Origin: Candidatus Sungbacteria bacterium RIFCSPLOWO2_01_FULL_54_21
GTDB taxonomy: Bacteria; Patescibacteriota; Minisyncoccia; Sungbacterales; HO2-52-23
Direction: 5' to 3'
Assembly: GCA_001820725.1 (NCBI GenBank)
Contig: MHQR01000020.1
Location: 1-63,084, forward strand
Length of the DNA stretch: 63,084 bases
In this document: positions 675 through 39,980 of the stretch, in pieces
Numbering within the stretch: position 1 is the stretch's first letter
Layout of the letters: every line of letters starts with the position of its first letter
The notes under the pieces: generated by a model
The model's database searches: none
Told to the model about the DNA's origin: nothing
What the model saw: only the letters and a program-made list of their open reading frames with translations
Made by a program: the position numbers and the translations under genes

Positions 675-998
675 TCAAGCGGCAACACCAGCATTGCGCT
701 CCAGACGGCCAAGCCGTTTTTCATGATCTTCCACCGCTTCACGCATGTCGGGAACATCGGATATTTCTTCGTGCATGAGATCAAGGCGCTTGTTCACCGC
801 CCGGAAGCCATCATCCATTTTTTGCTCCAGCCGACGGACATCTCCTTTTAGGCCTCCTATCTCTTCCTTGACTCCTCTAATCTCATCTCCCATATCTCCG
901 ATTTGTTGCCTTACCCCCCCGATCTCTTCAGTAACCCCGCCAAAACCGCGCTTTACCATCAGCGCCAAATCATCAATAATCATTTGTTTCTTCGGCAC
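675..998 (-). CDS. coiled-coil repeat protein, paralog of 36018..36361
   Basis: 107 aa with repeated EEIGG/DEIRG heptad-like units and tail DGFRAVNKRLDLMHEEISDVPDMREAVEDHEKRLGRLERN. Aligns along its length with the ORF at 36018. Confidence 0.65.
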   Translation of the reverse strand: MPKKQMIIDDLALMVKRGFGGVTEEIGGVRQQIGDMGDEIRGVKEEIGGLKGDVRRLEQKMDDGFRAVNKRLDLMHEEISDVPDMREAVEDHEKRLGRLERNAGVAA

Positions 999-1390
999 CC
1001 GTCCAGTATATGTCTCTCTCCCGATATGTCAATCCACTGTACTTTTCCCCAGCCGCGGCCGCTTGACACCAACGTAGCGCCCATGCTACCATTCCAGCAA
1101 CGATATGATATCTGCTTACCTTTCGGCAAAAATAGCAACATGGTGGTGGACTTTGCACACAGCGCAAAGTCCGCATTTGGCGATTCGATAAGCAAGCAAA
1201 ACATCGAATCCCCCGTAAACGATCGTTTACGCCCTCTGGACTTTGCCGGAGGGTATTTTGTTTGTGTTGCAGGGCGGCCGTTTATCTCTGAGAGATAAAT
1301 TGCCGGCCGCCAGCACAAGGCGTGTTGGCAATACCGCTCTTTGACAATGAGAGCTGTTGAGCAACCCAAAATCGGTTGAAAGGAAACACG

Positions 1391-4032: not shown

Positions 4033-4218
4033 ATGCTTTCGGATTCCCAGTTGCGCATCGTGACCAGCGTATTGGTTTCCAGCGGAGAGGTATTTCTTGC
4101 GTCACTGGTGGTGCCTTTTTTCACCAGAGAGTTCAGTCCTATTGCATTCGTTCTCGGTATTATGTTCACCGCAGGCGCATGGTTCATCGCTTTAATCATC
4201 GGTAAATATATTTCTTGA
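4033..4218 (+). CDS. small two-TM membrane protein (cassette copy A)
   Basis: GGAGGAAACT before the ATG at 4033. Two hydrophobic spans (VFLASLVVPFF, FVLGIMFTAGAWFIALIIG). Homologous to 36431..36625. Confidence 0.6.
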   Translation: MLSDSQLRIVTSVLVSSGEVFLASLVVPFFTREFSPIAFVLGIMFTAGAWFIALIIGKYIS

Positions 4219-4220
4219 GT

Positions 4221-4316
4221 ATGACCCACTTAGCCATCTTTTATCTTGCAGGCGCTATTCTGCTTTTGGCGATTGCCATCGTGGTATATCCCACGCTTCG
4301 GCATCGTTCCCAGTGA
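4221..4316 (+). CDS. 31-aa single-TM micro-protein (MTHLAIFYLAGAILLLAIAIVVYPTLRHRSQ)
   Basis: ATG 2 nt after the stop of the upstream gene. Hydrophobic core plus basic tail. Paralog at 4414..4512, analogous pair at 36632..36828. Confidence 0.5.
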   Translation: MTHLAIFYLAGAILLLAIAIVVYPTLRHRSQ

Positions 4317-4413
4317 TAGGAGCATAGAACAGACAACGCCTATCATGTTTCCGTATCCCTATGCTTGAGATGTGGATCTTCGCCATGACGCTGGCAAAAG
4401 ACATCCAAACAGT

Positions 4414-4512
4414 ATGAACCAACTCCAACTTTTTTATCTTACCATCGCGATTTTTCTCCTTGCCGTTGCGATCGTTGTCCACCCGACACTTCGCAAAAAG
4501 TCAGGGCGATGA
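4414..4512 (+). CDS. 32-aa single-TM micro-protein (MNQLQLFYLTIAIFLLAVAIVVHPTLRKKSGR)
   Basis: Shares FYL..AI.LLA.AIVV.PTLR with 4221..4316. The conserved reading frame argues for translation. Confidence 0.5.
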   Translation: MNQLQLFYLTIAIFLLAVAIVVHPTLRKKSGR

Positions 4513-4533
4513 TTTCATGGGGCTACCCACATC

Positions 4534-4561
4534 TTGACACGATGGGGGTATCTGATAAGAT
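4534..4561 (+). promoter_or_regulatory. sigma70-like promoter candidate
   Basis: TTGACA (4534-4539), 16-nt spacer, TAAGAT (4556-4561). Confidence 0.3.
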
Positions 4562-4688
4562 AGTCATACTGTTATGAATCATTGTATTTCGCCCACAACT
4601 TCATATTTCTTCGGCTTTACCTACTTTACCCAACGGAGTTGGCGGTCTTGAAATATACAGTGAAGTAAAAGCGTAAATGACCGGCCGA

Positions 4689-4712
4689 CTCCTCAAGAAA
4701 GAGGGGTTTTTT
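4689..4712 (+). terminator. terminator-like hairpin plus T-run
   Basis: CTCCTC-AAGAAA-GAGGGG followed by TTTTTT. Confidence 0.4.
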
Positions 4713-4933
4713 GTTGGCACATTGTCTTTTGACGCCGCGCACGGAATCAGTAGTTCCGCGCCCGACGCCAGAGGATAACAGGTATCCTGCTGGAGATCGT
4801 CAGTACGAGATCTTTGATAACCAAATAATCTCAAGGGGTTAAAGGAGACATCGGCCCATGTGCAGGCAATGTTTGATGCGCTCGGCAGATTAAGATTAGA
4901 AAACCCGACCATACTTCAAGTGAGGAGAAAGGC

Positions 4934-5140
4934 ATGTACGAGCACGGAGGTATTGAGAAAAATGGTGGAGTGCAGGAAAGGGCCGAAGAGCCGAACTGCC
5001 TTCACGAGGGACCGTATACAAGGATACACATCGTTTCTACGGGGGTTGTGACGCAGTTTTGTGCTCGTTGCGTGGCACAAGTCACGGCCTTTCATAAGCA
5101 GGCGGGGTCTTCTATTCAAAACCTTGGCCCGGCGGAATAA
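4934..5140 (+). CDS. hypothetical 68-aa Cys/His-containing protein
   Basis: GAGGAGAAAGGC before the ATG. C-x-H ... C-x2-C arrangement (NCLHEGP...FCARCV). Confidence 0.4.
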   Translation: MYEHGGIEKNGGVQERAEEPNCLHEGPYTRIHIVSTGVVTQFCARCVAQVTAFHKQAGSSIQNLGPAE

Positions 5141-5156
5141 CATTCAGGAGATTGGT

Positions 5157-5417
5157 ATGCAGATAATGTGCATGGAGCCGGAGAGGAAGGCCGCGGAACA
5201 TCTCAACAGCCAACGAGGAGCTCGTTCAACGATCGTTCTCTGCGGTTCTGTCTCCGAAGTGCTCGCCAGGATCACGGAGGAAGGAGGAGACCCATATAAA
5301 ATTGGGGTCATTCCCAAGACCGAGATTACACAGGATTTTCTCTTTGTTCTGGAAGAATCCGCAACTCTGCAAATTGTCTGCGAGTGGCGGCTTCCCTTGA
5401 GGGTACACCTCGCATAG
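5157..5417 (+). CDS. hypothetical 86-aa protein
   Basis: CAGGAG 6 nt before the ATG at 5157. A strong terminator follows at 5448. Confidence 0.45.
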   Translation: MQIMCMEPERKAAEHLNSQRGARSTIVLCGSVSEVLARITEEGGDPYKIGVIPKTEITQDFLFVLEESATLQIVCEWRLPLRVHLA

Positions 5418-5447
5418 GGTGTGCCGAAGTCATCTGATCATCAGCAC

Positions 5448-5483
5448 GGGAGTGTCGCCATGCGACACTCCCATTTTCTTTTT
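5448..5483 (+). terminator. rho-independent terminator
   Basis: 11-bp perfect stem GGGAGTGTCGC/GCGACACTCCC followed by ATTTTCTTTTT. Confidence 0.7.
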
Positions 5484-5497
5484 CAACCGCCAAGGGA

Positions 5498-5527
5498 TTG
5501 ACGCTTCTTTCGACTCCGTGCTACTGT
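5498..5527 (+). promoter_or_regulatory. sigma70-like promoter candidate
   Basis: TTGACG (5498-5503), 18-nt spacer, TACTGT (5522-5527). Confidence 0.3.
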
Positions 5528-5647
5528 ATCGTCATCATGAAAATCGTGCGACAAAGCCATGGTCTGCATCTCGGACTTCTCCTTACCAAGAGGGCGGGCT
5601 TTGTTGGAGCGCATCAGTAGATGTACAGAAGCAAAAGAACTCCGGCA

Positions 5648-5679
5648 ATCCTTCCCCAGCGCGGGAGGGATTTTTGTTT
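5648..5679 (+). terminator. terminator-like hairpin plus T-run
   Basis: ATCCTTCCC-CAGCGC-GGGAGGGAT (one G-U pair) followed by TTTTTGTTT. Confidence 0.5.
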
Positions 5680-5778
5680 ACATGGGCATCCGCGTGTCTA
5701 AGGCATGTGCGACCCACAGAAAAAGAGCACTCGTTCTTTGGACATCATTTCATGTTTCGCTGGATGGGGGGATCAGTG

Positions 5779-5958
5779 ATGGCAGATACAAGATTTCTAA
5801 ACGCCCTTTCAGACCAGGTGTTGATTCAGAGATTCAAACAGTTCAGTGGTATAGATCGCGATCTCGTCCTGCGTGTCCTCAAGCAAAGATTCAATAGAGG
5901 GTCATTGAAAGCTGACCTGCCGAGCAGTCTCCGTCAAGCACTTAAAGATAAGGTTTAA
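5779..5958 (+). CDS. hypothetical 59-aa protein
   Basis: GGGGGG-rich SD before the ATG at 5779. Only the last third of track ORF 5419..5958 is kept, because the upstream part crosses a terminator and a promoter. Confidence 0.45.
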   Translation: MADTRFLNALSDQVLIQRFKQFSGIDRDLVLRVLKQRFNRGSLKADLPSSLRQALKDKV

Positions 5959-5983
5959 TGTCTGATCATTACGGGTTCATCTC

Positions 5984-6018
5984 GGGCGGATCCTTTAATG
6001 GCCGCCCATTTTCTTTTT
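5984..6018 (+). terminator. rho-independent terminator
   Basis: GGGCGG...CCGCCC stem followed by ATTTTCTTTTT. The CCCATTTTCTTTTT tail is identical to the terminator at 5448. Confidence 0.6.
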
Positions 6019-6049
6019 GCCACTAACGAGGTTTAACCTCGTTAGTGGC
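6019..6049. repeat. 31-nt perfect palindrome (15-bp arms)
   Basis: GCCACTAACGAGGTT-T-AACCTCGTTAGTGGC read directly. It immediately follows the previous terminator. Confidence 0.75.
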
Positions 6050-6127
6050 GCTTGACTATTTTTATGCTATCGGACACACTAGTGCTAATAAAATCTCATT
6101 TTTTATTCACCTTTATCCTACTTTTTT

Positions 6128-35987: not shown

Positions 35988-36017
35988 TACGTTTATTATA
36001 GAGGAGTTGACAGCATC

Positions 36018-36361
36018 ATGGCAACCGATAAAATGAATCTGATGGCAAAGAAAATAAGCACAATTGGAGAGCTTGCCGCAATGATCCAGTGGACCATGGC
36101 AAGTAAGGAGGATCTTAAAGCCCTCAAGGTTGAACTCAAGGGAGATATTGCGGGGGTGAGATCGGAACTCAAGGGAGATATTGCGCAGATGCGGGAGGAA
36201 ATGGCGACGAAGACCGAGATGCGGGACGGATTCTATGCGGTCAATCGCCGCATAGACCTCTTGCGGAAGATATCCCCGACTTGCCTGACATCCGCGAGGA
36301 AGTAAAGGATCTCGGTGAGCGCCTCACGCGCGTAGAGCGGAAAGTCGGCACCGCGCGATAG
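36018..36361 (+). pseudogene. frameshifted paralog of the coiled-coil protein at 675..998
   Basis: The frame from 36018 ends at 36305. The homologous tail EDIPDLPDIREEVKDLGERLTRVERKVGTAR continues in another frame (36266-36361). Confidence 0.65.
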
Positions 36362-36430
36362 GGAGTTTTCGCTTCTTGACATCTCGGTTTTGACGCGGTT
36401 ATTATAGAAGTTGAAGGAATTGATATTTTT

Positions 36431-36625
36431 ATGTACCTTGATCATCAACAAATCGAGACGCTTTCAAAATATTTCGGTGATGCTTCAAAACTGCTCGTCG
36501 GATCCGTTGTCATAGGGTTCTTCATTCCCAACGAGGCAGAACCGCTTTCTCTCCCTGTATTTTTCTCCGGAATCTTTGCTGCCTTGTCTTTCTTATACAT
36601 AAGCATCGCGCTCGCGAGAAAATAA
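36431..36625 (+). CDS. small two-TM membrane protein (cassette copy B)
   Basis: GSVVIGFF...GIFAALSFLYISIALARK aligns with ASLVVPFF...GIMFTAGAWFIALIIGK of 4033..4218. Confidence 0.6.
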   Translation: MYLDHQQIETLSKYFGDASKLLVGSVVIGFFIPNEAEPLSLPVFFSGIFAALSFLYISIALARK

Positions 36626-36631
36626 AAACAT

Positions 36632-36733
36632 ATGCCCCTCCATCAAAAAATCATCATTGTATATCTGACCCTCACCCTGATAGGCACGGTGTTGTATATT
36701 GTTGGCATGCGGTCTAAAAACAGCAGTATATGA
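36632..36733 (+). CDS. 33-aa single-TM micro-protein (MPLHQKIIIVYLTLTLIGTVLYIVGMRSKNSSI)
   Basis: Starts 6 nt after the upstream stop. Hydrophobic core plus polar/basic tail. Confidence 0.45.
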   Translation: MPLHQKIIIVYLTLTLIGTVLYIVGMRSKNSSI

Positions 36734-36828
36734 TCGGCGATGCAGTATTTTACACTATCACGGCCGTTCTCTTTGCTCTCATGTTTGCCGTGCTGATTTT
36801 CTACAATCCGAAGCCACGCAAACGTTGA
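36730..36828 (+). CDS. 32-aa single-TM micro-protein (MIGDAVFYTITAVLFALMFAVLIFYNPKPRKR)
   Basis: ATGA overlap with the previous micro-ORF. Resembles the 4221/4414 peptides (FY..., basic tail). Confidence 0.5.
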   Translation: MIGDAVFYTITAVLFALMFAVLIFYNPKPRKR

Positions 36829-36880
36829 TGATTCTGCAACACAAAGCTCCCGCGTTACGCGGGCGCTTTTTAGCTCCGCG

Positions 36881-38623
36881 TCATTCCACCACGGCGCGGA
36901 TGCGGCGCACGCCTGCGGAGCTGGCTTCTTCTTTGACGATCTTAAACTTCCCCACTTCGGCGGTATGCTGAACATGAGGCCCGCCGCAGAATTCGCATGA
37001 CACGATCTCCCCGCTCGCGGGGTCGTGCATGGTATATATCTTCACGCGCGGCGGATATTTCTCGCGGAAAAATCCGAGCGCGCCTTTCTGTATCCCCTCC
37101 TCGCAGGGCATTTCCTCCCATTTCACCTGATAGTCGTGCCTGATTGCGTCATTCACCCAGTCCTCCACTTTTTTGATCTCTTCCGGAGTTACTTTGCGCG
37201 GAAAGCGAAAGTCAAAACGCGTGCGCTCCACGGTGATGTCCGACCCGTCCTGCCGCACTTCCGGGCCCAGCACCGCACGCAATCCTGCATGGAGCAGGTG
37301 TGTTGCCGTGTGCAGACGCGTTACTTTTTCCACTTCGGATTCATCCCGGATCGTCACCTCGCCGGTCTTCATATACAGCCCGTGCCCGCCGAATTTTGCC
37401 GATGATCCCGCGCGTGATACTTCCTGATGCTTTTTGAACTCCTCGTCAAATTGCTCGCGCGTGAGATGAATAGCCCTCTTTCCTCCGTCATAATCTTTGA
37501 TCACTTCGTACGGCAGGCCGAAACTCTCGTACAAATGAAACGCGGCCTTCGCGTCTCCGGACGGCATACGCTCCATTTCTTTGAGGCCGTGGCGGAGCGT
37601 TTTCATGAACTTTTCTCTCTCGTCAGAATATGCCGAGACGATACTGTCTTTCTCACGCACAAGTTCAGGATACGTCGGGCCGTACTGTTCAATCGTCCGT
37701 TCAATGAGCGGTCTGACATCGTGCATGACGATCGCGCGCCGGAGCAGACGGCGGAGAACATATTCGCGGTCTTTATTTGACGGTCTTACACCGTCAGCAA
37801 GGAGAAACACGGCCGCCCGTGCGTGATCAGCAATTACCCGCTTCTGCGTATCGGTAAAATCAGAAGGCACCAGGTCCATGAGAGGCGCGTAAAGATCCGT
37901 TTCAAAAATATCATTTTTTCCTTGCACGCACATCGCAAGCCGTTCCAGCCCCATGCCCGTGTCTATGCCTTTGGTCGCAAGCGGCTCCAATGTCGCATTG
38001 CCCGCGAGCAGTTCCTCCCGACTGCCCGAGCAGAAAAACTCATTGAACACGATGTTCCAAACTTCAATATCCTCTCCCGCGCTGTTTTTGCAGTAAATCT
38101 CCGTGGTTGGACCGCAGGGGCCTGATGCCCCGGTCGGCCCCCAAAACACGTCATCCATCCCTTCCTCGCGGATGTCGGTGATACCGAGAGACCGCCAGAT
38201 ACGCGCGGATTCCTCGTCCTTTGGCACACTGATACCCTCTTTTCCCTGAAAGATGGTTACATATGAAATGGCGAGTCCCATTTCTTTTGTCAAAAAATCA
38301 AAAGCGTAGGTAATCGCTTCTTTTTTGAAATATCCGCCGAATGAGAAATTCCCCATCATTTCAAAAAAGGTGAGGTGTCGCCCGTCGCCCACTTCGTCAA
38401 TATCAGAGGTACGAAAGGATTTCTGGATTGATACGGTATTGCGCGAGCCGAAATCACGATCCGCCATTTCAGGATTGGTGTAATACTTTTTGAACTGTTG
38501 CATACCAGCGGTCGTCAAAAGCACCGACGGATCGTCGGGTATAAGAGAAGACGACGGCACGGCGGCGTGCCCGCGTGCCGCAAAAAAATCGAGGAATTTT
38601 TTCCGTAATGCCGCGGAGTCCAT
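36881..38623 (-). CDS. alaS: alanine--tRNA ligase, short form without the C-Ala domain
   Basis: TTAGMQQFK, editing-domain HTATHLLH and CGGPHV. Ends right after the editing domain. Start at MDSAALRKKF. Confidence 0.9.
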   Translation of the reverse strand: MDSAALRKKFLDFFAARGHAAVPSSSLIPDDPSVLLTTAGMQQFKKYYTNPEMADRDFGSRNTVSIQKSFRTSDIDEVGDGRHLTFFEMMGNFSFGGYFKKEAITYAFDFLTKEMGLAISYVTIFQGKEGISVPKDEESARIWRSLGITDIREEGMDDVFWGPTGASGPCGPTTEIYCKNSAGEDIEVWNIVFNEFFCSGSREELLAGNATLEPLATKGIDTGMGLERLAMCVQGKNDIFETDLYAPLMDLVPSDFTDTQKRVIADHARAAVFLLADGVRPSNKDREYVLRRLLRRAIVMHDVRPLIERTIEQYGPTYPELVREKDSIVSAYSDEREKFMKTLRHGLKEMERMPSGDAKAAFHLYESFGLPYEVIKDYDGGKRAIHLTREQFDEEFKKHQEVSRAGSSAKFGGHGLYMKTGEVTIRDESEVEKVTRLHTATHLLHAGLRAVLGPEVRQDGSDITVERTRFDFRFPRKVTPEEIKKVEDWVNDAIRHDYQVKWEEMPCEEGIQKGALGFFREKYPPRVKIYTMHDPASGEIVSCEFCGGPHVQHTAEVGKFKIVKEEASSAGVRRIRAVVE

Positions 38624-38749: not shown

Positions 38750-39799
38750 CTACAGCGACACCACCTCTTCCCAGGGAAAGCCATCCCGGCCAAAGTGGCC
38801 GTACGCGGCGGTCCTGGCATAGATGGGGCGGCGAAGATTCAGCCGCTCAATGATGGCCTTGGGCCTGAAGTCAAATTTCTCTTTGACGATCGCGGACAAA
38901 TCCCTGCCGTCGTCTGCTTCGGCATATACCATGAGGGGATCGGCGCGGCCGATGGCGTACGCCACCGTGACCGTACATTCCTTGGCCACGCCATTGGCCA
39001 CGATATTTTTTGCCGCAAAGCGCGACATATACGCCGCCGAGCGATCCACCTTTGTAGGATCTTTGCCGGAAAACGCGCCGCCGCCGTGAGGCACGAGACC
39101 GCCATACGTATCCACCACGATCTTTCTGCCGGTAAGGCCGGTGTCTGCCGCAAAGCCGCCGATCGTGAATTTGCCCGTCGGATTTACCAACACCTCCACG
39201 CCGTCGAGGTCGCCCACGACCGGACGGATAAGTTTGCGCACCAGCGTATCTTTGATCTGTTCCTGACTCACGCTATCCGCGTGCTGGCAGGAAATGAGTA
39301 CCGTCGTCACTTTGCCGTCCTGCATGGTAACTTGCGATTTGCCGTCCGGCCCGAGCCACGCGCATTCGGGGTCAGTGCGGCGCAATTGTTCCAAGCCCTG
39401 CGTCAACTTGTGGGACAATGCCACGGCACGCGGCATGAATTCCGGCGTCTCGGCGGTCGCATAGCCGTACATTATGCCCTGGTCGCCAGCGCCTCCCGTA
39501 TCCACACCCTGCGCAATATCGGGCGACTGTTGGACGATATTGGTCATGATCTGAAGATCATCGGTATAGCCAAGCGAACGATAAAACGCGCGGCCGATTT
39601 TGCCCGCATCAACGACGCCCTTGCTCGTAACCTCGCCGCCGATGACCAGAAGTCCGTGCGAGCCAAACGTTTCTACTGCCACGCGCGAGTGCGGGTCAAC
39701 AGCCAAAAACGCGTCCAGCACTGAGTCAGAAATAGCATCGCACACTTTGTCCGGGTGCCCGGACGTAACGCTCTCTACGGTATGGATAGTATGCTTCAT
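38750..39799 (-). CDS. metK: S-adenosylmethionine synthase
   Basis: ESVTSGHPDKVCD, GAGDQGIMYGYA, GGGAFSGKDPTKVDRS. Start at MKHTIHTVE. Confidence 0.95.
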   Translation of the reverse strand: MKHTIHTVESVTSGHPDKVCDAISDSVLDAFLAVDPHSRVAVETFGSHGLLVIGGEVTSKGVVDAGKIGRAFYRSLGYTDDLQIMTNIVQQSPDIAQGVDTGGAGDQGIMYGYATAETPEFMPRAVALSHKLTQGLEQLRRTDPECAWLGPDGKSQVTMQDGKVTTVLISCQHADSVSQEQIKDTLVRKLIRPVVGDLDGVEVLVNPTGKFTIGGFAADTGLTGRKIVVDTYGGLVPHGGGAFSGKDPTKVDRSAAYMSRFAAKNIVANGVAKECTVTVAYAIGRADPLMVYAEADDGRDLSAIVKEKFDFRPKAIIERLNLRRPIYARTAAYGHFGRDGFPWEEVVSL

Positions 39800-39811
39800 A
39801 ACATTTCTAAA

Positions 39812-39980
39812 AGTAAAAAATAAACCCCTTCGCACGGAGGGATGATAAATACTCTTTATCTTCCCCAAGACGTGGGTCGGATGGGGCACCATCCCTAGAT
39901 ATATCAATAGGTCGAAATATCCAGTTGGTTGCCGGCAGGATCACGGGGCCGATTCCCTCCCCTGCGCTCGTGATAATATT
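39812..39980 (-). promoter_or_regulatory. SAM-I (S-box) riboswitch with expression platform, in the metK leader
   Basis: The - strand reads UUAUCACGAGCGCAGGGGAGGGAAUCGGCCCCGUGAUCCUGCCGGCAACC...GGUGCCCCAUCC...GAAGAUAAAG, matching SAM-I core conservation. It is followed by CCCUCC...GGGGUUUAUUUUUU. A possible promoter (TTGTCC, 18 nt, TAGTAT) lies at 40001-40030. Confidence 0.85.

Follow-up and report, generated by a model that had tools for sequence, protein, structure and literature searches.

The DNA analysed here (the window) is a 63,084-nucleotide (nt) stretch of a Candidatus Sungbacteria genome, belonging to the Candidate Phyla Radiation (CPR, or Patescibacteria), and the element in question is a cassette of three very small open reading frames (ORFs), named cassette B, at positions 36431-36828. 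Its first gene (gene 1, B64; 36431-36625, plus strand) starts with ATG and encodes a protein of 64 amino acids (aa), predicted to form a two-helix membrane hairpin. On the same strand follow B33 (gene 2, micro-1 family; 36632-36733; 33 aa) and B32 (gene 3, micro-2 family; 36730-36828; 32 aa), both with ATG starts and both predicted to contain a single transmembrane (TM) helix. In hydropathy profiles B64 has two hydrophobic helices and the micro-proteins B33 and B32 have one apiece, with their positive charge concentrated in the C-terminal tails; the tail of B33 is basic, and B32 carries an FY-N-P motif and a KPRKR tail. The B33 start codon lies 6 nt past the B64 stop codon and has no Shine-Dalgarno core of its own, and the B33 stop overlaps the B32 start as ATGA. 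The ORFs, their starts and the overlap are as a preliminary description of this DNA, made by reading the sequence, had reported them.

Signals that could delimit a transcription unit are found on both sides of the cassette. A sigma-70-type promoter-like site, TTGACA-18-TATTAT (36376-36405, plus strand), matches the consensus at 11 of 12 positions, a consensus match only, and lies 25 nt 5' of B64. Downstream, a bidirectional hairpin resembling an intrinsic terminator, CCCGCG-TTA-CGCGGG (36849-36875, both strands), has a GC-rich stem and T-runs on each side; it is common to cassette B and the convergent alanyl-tRNA synthetase gene and closes both. The locus is also present on eight near-identical strain-level contigs, and a hypothetical protein from "Candidatus Sungbacteria bacterium RIFCSPLOWO2_02_FULL_54" has exactly the sequence of B64. 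Among the nine strain-level sequences the only variable site of the cassette is window position 36743, which is C in the window and T in all others, changing Ala5 of B32 to Val. The strain-level variation is too small for selection tests, and the conservation of the cassette was followed in more distant genomes.

Conservation of the trio and its coding signal

The comparison set was assembled from exact-protein look-ups (loci L009, L010 and L013), from one genome per GTDB species (L014-L023) and from a metagenome scan (L029-L062). In all 13 genome loci, gene 1 is followed by two same-strand micro-ORFs of 27-38 codons. Enough downstream sequence to judge is available for 30 of the 34 metagenome loci, and both micro-ORFs follow gene 1 in 28 of these, 25 recognized by hidden Markov model (HMM) and 3 by eye (L029-L031, where the second micro-ORF is divergent). 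In L046 the second micro-ORF is absent, and in L061 gene 1 is fused to the first one. The micro-1 family has the consensus M-N-P-I-I-F-Y-I-x-A-x-x-L-G-L-V-L-F-F-I-G-x-K-x-x-x-K-K and the micro-2 family M-x-x-D-T-x-L-Y-I-I-F-x-V-L-V-x-x-x-F-A-V-A-Y-Y-Y-G-R/K, the latter ending in L-F-Y-x-P-K in the clade nearest to the window. When HMMs of both families were built from other genomes only, with the window excluded, B33 matched the micro-1 model with 27.3 bits (E=3.6e-8) and B32 the micro-2 model with 25.9 bits (E=8.6e-8). They were the only significant matches to either model among the 348 ATG-initiated ORFs of 20-60 aa in the window. Comparison of the micro-1 and micro-2 profiles with each other gave no firm homology, the sequences being short and hydrophobic.

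The mode of change within the micro-ORFs is that of protein-coding genes. In codon alignments, synonymous change is near saturation and amino-acid changes are few: synonymous divergence (pS) is 0.61 and non-synonymous divergence (pN) 0.03 for micro-1 of L014 and L022, and 0.76 and 0.14, respectively, for micro-2 of L014 and L021. The pooled pN/pS is about 0.5, and the sense frame has the lowest ratio of the six frames. The third codon position is the most variable in both families (0.32/0.19/0.47 in micro-1; 0.29/0.22/0.48 in micro-2). A structured RNA or riboswitch in the region was considered and rejected, as the predicted folding of the RNA of positions 36626-36880 does not surpass that of shuffled controls (z = -0.85) and the region has no match in Rfam, even when thresholds are relaxed. 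The preliminary description had remarked that the ORF track shows a 110-aa antisense ORF here. It exists mechanically (36643-36975, minus strand), but it was called by no gene caller on the eight strain-level contigs, and the conservation signal lies in the sense frame.

Taken together, the comparative data indicate that the three ORFs are a real operon conserved in dozens of Patescibacteria genomes. The earlier proposal that they form a functional unit, with micro-ORFs that are genuine coding genes, is borne out by the conservation of frame, order and sequence across many genomes, and the frame conservation named in advance as a check on it was found in genome and metagenome loci alike. The two smallest genes are almost never annotated. 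Their exact sequences are absent from a collection of 15 billion proteins, which means that no pipeline ever called B33 or B32. Gene callers apply a length limit that two of the three genes do not reach, so the trio is a concrete case of missing coding capacity, and three families with clear motifs and a fixed gene order could enter annotation pipelines.

The junctions between the genes are mostly ATGA stop/start overlaps. Among 36 distinct cassettes, a 4-nt ATGA overlap joins gene 1 to micro-1 in 23 and micro-1 to micro-2 in 17, and the remaining spacings do not exceed 18 nt, except in two cassettes with a truncated gene 1. A Shine-Dalgarno core of at least 4 nt precedes only 2 of 36 micro-1 and 5 of 36 micro-2 genes. 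Promoter-like sites lie upstream in 14 of the 36 loci and terminator-like sites accompany 6, so an autonomous transcription unit is supported for the window copy and not in general. Of the 14 loci where such a promoter-like site occurs, nine (L013, L020, L021, L032, L033, L043, L045, L047 and L052) have a -10 box that stops only 4-10 nt short of the gene 1 start codon, a spacing which suggests that the transcripts may be leaderless. Leaderless mRNAs would fit the near absence of Shine-Dalgarno motifs in the cassettes.

Clustering of all flanking ORFs revealed no universal neighbour of the cassette. Its context includes alaS and an amidohydrolase gene in the window, and it is found elsewhere beside an NYN-domain gene and pnp, beside gyrB and secE-nusG, and next to map or nusA; rpsO-pnp is also among its housekeeping neighbours. 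In one subclade, a single-TM protein of about 115-125 aa with tandem LTDAQKAEILKSL-type repeats is encoded immediately upstream of the cassette (L014, 2124-2498; L015, 2105-2491; L018, 2140-2490; L022, 2156-2491; also L049, L055, L057 and L062). Its copies share at least 38% identity, and it was not found in the other loci.

The gene 1 family and the remote copy A

Detection of gene 1 relatives depends on the search method. A word-indexed search with B64 alone returned no match besides B64 itself; exhaustive phmmer against 1.84 billion cluster representatives (clusters at 50% identity) gave 33 relatives at E<=0.001, nearly all of 61-70 aa, and a profile search with the family in a collection of 5.8 billion sequences gave 120 clusters, here at 90% identity. 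All profile matches that bear an organism name are from Patescibacteria (Sungbacteria, Berkelbacteria, Portnoybacteria, Giovannonibacteria and Parcubacteria). Its members share the motif x-x-D-x-S/A-K-I-x-F-x-S-x-V-V-G-F-F-I-P, of which the VVGFFIP part is nearly invariant, and have a conserved Gly farther on, in the second helix. In an alignment of 104 sequences D17 and K20 are conserved at 99%, and G29, F30, F31 and P33 at 93-99%. The B64-type family is defined here as proteins of about 61-68 aa with D-x-x-K and then S-x-V-x-G-F-F-x-P on one long helix and a second helix with a conserved Gly; B64 has all of these residues (D17, K20, S25, V27, G29, F30, F31, P33 and G47). AlphaFold2, supplied with the family alignment, models B64 as a helical hairpin of residues 5-31 and 41-63 (predicted local distance difference test score, pLDDT, 91.4). 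From these helix boundaries, the long helix that holds the first hydrophobic stretch would also carry D17 and K20.

Pfam, NCBIfam, PHROGs and PADLOC searches with all six small proteins of the two window cassettes (cassette B and copy A, described below) gave only one weak match, that of B64 to DUF6722 (PF20482), with 18.2 bits and E=0.003, below the gathering cut-off of 27 bits. Residues 11-58 of B64 align to positions 1-46 of the 49 in the model. The DUF6722 model recognizes 16 of the 33 representatives of the gene 1 family at E<0.01 (best E=8.8e-7), and about 20 of the 120 gene 1 clusters carry a precomputed PF20482 label. The gene 1 family is thus a distant relative of DUF6722, an uncharacterised family of small bacterial membrane proteins; the two downstream micro-genes, in contrast, are covered by no family model searched. 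The literature searched contains no mention of DUF6722 or PF20482 and no description of such a CPR operon. Sequence-profile searches of the PDB with the cassette proteins and a Foldseek search of the PDB with the hairpin model gave nothing significant. In a few records, the micro-ORFs are intact and gene 1 carries a truncation, a frameshift or a fusion to micro-1 in which the second helix is lost (L019, 2501-2650; L022, 2501-2602; L060, 1362-1526; L061, 2495-2635; and protein P0141). Either the second helix has indeed decayed repeatedly, or low-coverage assemblies contain indel errors here.

The window contains a second, divergent cassette, copy A. It consists of a gene 1 for a 61-aa protein (4033-4218, plus strand) and two micro-ORFs on the same strand, A33 (4221-4316; 31 aa, single TM) and A32 (4414-4512; 32 aa). 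The preliminary description regarded the two cassettes as a duplication of the whole unit with preserved architecture, and this view holds for gene 1 and not for the rest. Homology of B64 to the copy A protein, also claimed there, is upheld by profiles and not by pairwise comparison. BLASTP gives E=0.47, which is not significant, and hhalign of the B64 family against copy A gives a probability of 92.6% (E=4.5e-7), or 95.9% (E=5e-9) in a second comparison, as for remote paralogues. The copy A protein is without the Asp17/Lys20 pair, has no match to DUF6722 and belongs to a small family of its own with 50-84% identity.

The micro-ORFs of copy A have a different history. In the four copy A relatives for which DNA is available, gene 1 is followed by one micro-ORF, usually with an ATGA overlap, and A33 is the one that these relatives carry. 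The region at about 4320-4531 (about 210 nt), which holds A32, is an insertion relative to L024 and L026 and is lineage-specific. Compared in frame, A33 and A32 show pS of 0.71 and pN of 0.29, a signal that other frames do not give, and they are, on this evidence, tandem paralogues that appear to have diverged under protein-level constraint. Neither matches the micro-1 or micro-2 HMMs with more than 2.3 bits (hhalign probability below 3%), although the sequences are too short and hydrophobic for a firm verdict on homology. Because the relatives have one micro-ORF, A32 lies in a lineage-specific insertion and the micro-proteins are not significantly similar, copies A and B appear to share an ancient gene 1, and their three-part layouts to be convergent and not inherited as a block. 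Downstream of copy A (4534-4655), a promoter-like site TTGACA-16-TAAGAT precedes a stretch of about 90 nt that is strongly conserved with L024 and includes a possible 25-aa ORF, MNHCISPTTSYFFGFTYFTQRSWRS. The surrounding 1.6 kb or so (4520-6100) has no long ORF and no Rfam match. The conserved stretch with MNHCISPTTSYFFGFTYFTQRSWRS may encode a small protein, or it may serve as a small RNA or a leader.

A proposed membrane complex and its alternatives

The trio most likely encodes one small, almost entirely membrane-embedded complex with four helices per protomer, a reading to which a probability of about 60% is assigned. It is proposed that a single mRNA would yield the three products together, and that the micro-proteins would be made by termination-reinitiation coupled to translation of gene 1, by which the ratio of the products would be fixed. 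With a fixed stoichiometry, the products would probably be subunits of a single complex. The arrangement is supported by the fixed gene order and by purifying selection on all three genes, with no other gene consistently linked to them. According to the positive-inside rule, gene 1 is predicted to have both ends in the cytoplasm, and both micro-proteins an N-out/C-in orientation, and the hydropathy and the distribution of charges agree with this topology. Since the extramembrane parts are tiny, the activity would have to lie within the membrane. Each helix has small-residue motifs (S-x-x-x-G in gene 1, G/A spacing in both micro-proteins), aromatic residues stand at both helix ends in the manner of an aromatic belt, and the near-invariant Asp17 and Lys20 are predicted to lie on the long first helix near the cytoplasmic face. 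The Asp/Lys pair, the small-residue motifs and the aromatic belt suggest ion or proton handling, or docking on the TM part of a larger partner. A more specific version, rather less probable, is that the trio is an unrecognised, Patescibacteria-specific three-subunit complex, a minimal unit of four helices, whose Asp/Lys pair would conduct or sense ions or protons or would gate a larger membrane machine.

Several observations weigh against a dedicated complex. Expression, membrane insertion and interaction of the trio are all predictions from sequence, and translational coupling is also used by pairs that form no complex, toxin-antitoxin pairs among them. With about 120 clusters at 90% identity, the family seems to be patchily distributed and not universal in Patescibacteria, as would be expected of an accessory function. 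In the damaged loci (L019, L022, L060, L061 and P0141), gene 1 is truncated or fused and the micro-genes are intact, which means either that gene 1 can do without its second helix or that the assemblies are in error. Cassettes of the copy A type have one micro-gene. There is also no similarity to any characterised complex in Pfam, NCBIfam, PHROGs, PADLOC or the PDB. The possibility that the trio is a known family split into three was rejected, as concatenated trios gave only inconsistent, sub-threshold matches that differed between cassettes. The trio is placed outside all kinds of system that have been characterised; this assessment comes from the absence of detectable relatives, not from a demonstrated new mechanism, and the function could prove to be an ordinary one.

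One parallel to the micro-proteins is offered by small subunits of larger assemblies. KdpF and AcrZ are single-TM proteins of about 30 aa that work only within a membrane complex and are routinely missed by annotation. Similarly, CydX, of about 30 aa, is a single-TM micro-subunit of a large membrane machine (PMC4325964). B33, B32 and their relatives resemble all three proteins in size, in the single TM helix and in having been missed by annotation. However, the genes of KdpF, CydX and AcrZ are located within the operon of an identified large partner or act with one, whereas no such partner is linked to the cassette in 47 loci.

The main alternative, considered unlikely, is a membrane-toxin/immunity module, in which the micro-proteins would resemble type I toxins (Fst, Ldr, PepA1) or a two-peptide bacteriocin, and gene 1 would provide immunity or an antidote, the unit persisting as an accessory or addictive element. 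Type I toxins are short, have one hydrophobic helix and end in an aromatic or basic C-terminus. The micro-proteins share this general shape (27-38 aa, one hydrophobic TM helix, an aromatic/basic C-terminal end), and, like such toxins, they are usually unannotated and show tandem duplication, the window genome having two divergent cassettes and a tandem-duplicated micro-gene. An accessory module would also agree with the apparent patchiness of the family and with the unrelated genomic contexts lacking a fixed neighbour. With the immunity gene first, coupling would bar synthesis of toxin without immunity. Yet in the cassettes two distinct peptide families always lie downstream of, and coupled to, a two-TM gene, and even between deeply diverged lineages the three-gene architecture and both micro families remain stable, with strong purifying selection, which is unusual for toxin or bacteriocin loci of fast turnover. 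No antisense promoter or RNA was detected and no library model shows similarity; over 36626-36850 the minus strand showed no promoter-like site in a consensus scan, although a scan of this kind cannot exclude one. Moreover, loci with a damaged gene 1 keep their micro-genes intact, a state that cells could not survive if they depended on gene 1 as an antidote.

The bacteriocin form of this explanation meets difficulties of its own. Operons of class IIb bacteriocins encode two small peptides side by side, produced in equal amounts, together with an adjacent small membrane immunity gene. The cassette likewise combines two different small peptides and a small multi-TM protein in one operon, and its organisation implies that both peptides are made in equal amounts. 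In contrast to those operons, the peptide alignments show no double-glycine leader and uniformly hydrophobic rather than amphipathic cationic sequences, no transporter, processing or other accessory gene recurs nearby, and the putative immunity gene is first and not last. PADLOC and PHROG searches also gave no matches.

A phage-derived lysis cassette, with gene 1 as a pinholin-like holin and the micro-proteins as antiholin- or spanin-like helpers, is disfavoured and judged very improbable. Class II holins and pinholins, e.g., S68 of phage 21, have about 68 aa and two TM helices. Gene 1 resembles them in size and in its predicted N-in/C-in hairpin topology, and its first helix is rich in Gly, Ser and Ala. 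However, there is no phage context: no relative was found by tblastn in 50,697 phage genomes or in IMG/VR contigs, there is no significant PHROG match, and the neighbours are housekeeping genes (gyrB, secE-nusG, rpsO-pnp, alaS, map, nusA) with no endolysin among them.

The preliminary description further suggested a four-component system, in which a coiled-coil protein would act with the three membrane proteins. The suggestion draws on position. The coiled-coil gene (36018-36361, plus strand) is directly 5' of cassette B, and its intact paralogue (681-1013, minus strand; one continuous ORF) lies about 3 kb from copy A. The co-occurrence across genomes which was to support it was not observed. 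With the repaired coiled-coil protein and the paralogue as queries, tblastn at E<=1 found no homologue in the 153 kb of 47 B-type loci and none in 4 A-type loci, the only matches being of 19-21 residues with E of 0.4-0.65. In addition, the gene beside cassette B is split by a 1-nt frameshift near 36265-36272 relative to its paralogue, a frame break that is identical in all nine strain-level sequences, and the promoter-like site of the cassette lies downstream of it. A four-component system thus seems extremely improbable and is already refuted at the level of co-occurrence, and the coiled-coil gene is a chance neighbour of cassette B.

The weakest explanation, that the micro-ORFs are chance ORFs in a 3' untranslated region (UTR) or a non-coding RNA, or that the 110-aa antisense ORF is the real gene, would find support in their very short length, the lack of Shine-Dalgarno motifs and their omission by gene callers, but it is already refuted by the comparative data and has a negligible probability: over 40 loci preserve both micro-ORFs with their frame, length, order and sequence, B33 and B32 reach HMM E-values of about 1e-8, pS greatly exceeds pN in the sense frame only, the RNA fold is unexceptional with no match in Rfam, and the antisense ORF was left uncalled on all eight strain contigs.

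The genomes of CPR bacteria are very small and their cell envelope is poorly understood, and the trio offers a small, tractable target in them. If the three products do form a complex, it would be among the smallest hetero-oligomeric membrane assemblies known, and if that complex handles ions or protons, or gates a larger machine, it would count as a new type of micro-protein machine, in organisms whose membrane biology is hardly known. If the micro-proteins are instead toxins with an immunity protein, the module would be the first of its kind described for CPR bacteria.

Neighbouring sequences

Because of the break in the coiled-coil gene, its conserved C-terminal 30 codons (DIPDLPDIREEVKDLGERLTRVERKVGTAR) are in a different frame from the N-terminal 95 codons. 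The break could represent a pseudogene, programmed frameshifting or a consensus error shared by the assemblies. A near-repeat, TTATTATAGA(G)G(A)GTTGA, occurs 5' of both this gene (35994-36011) and B64 (36398-36413), and the copy on the B64 side overlaps the -10 region of the B64 promoter-like site. The TTATTATAGA near-repeat may be a shared promoter or 5' UTR element.

Further downstream, an S-adenosylmethionine (SAM) riboswitch is recognized on the minus strand at 39853-39979 (Rfam RF00162, 49.1 bits, above the gathering score). It lies directly 5' of the S-adenosylmethionine synthetase gene (38750-39907, minus strand), which is the ordinary arrangement.

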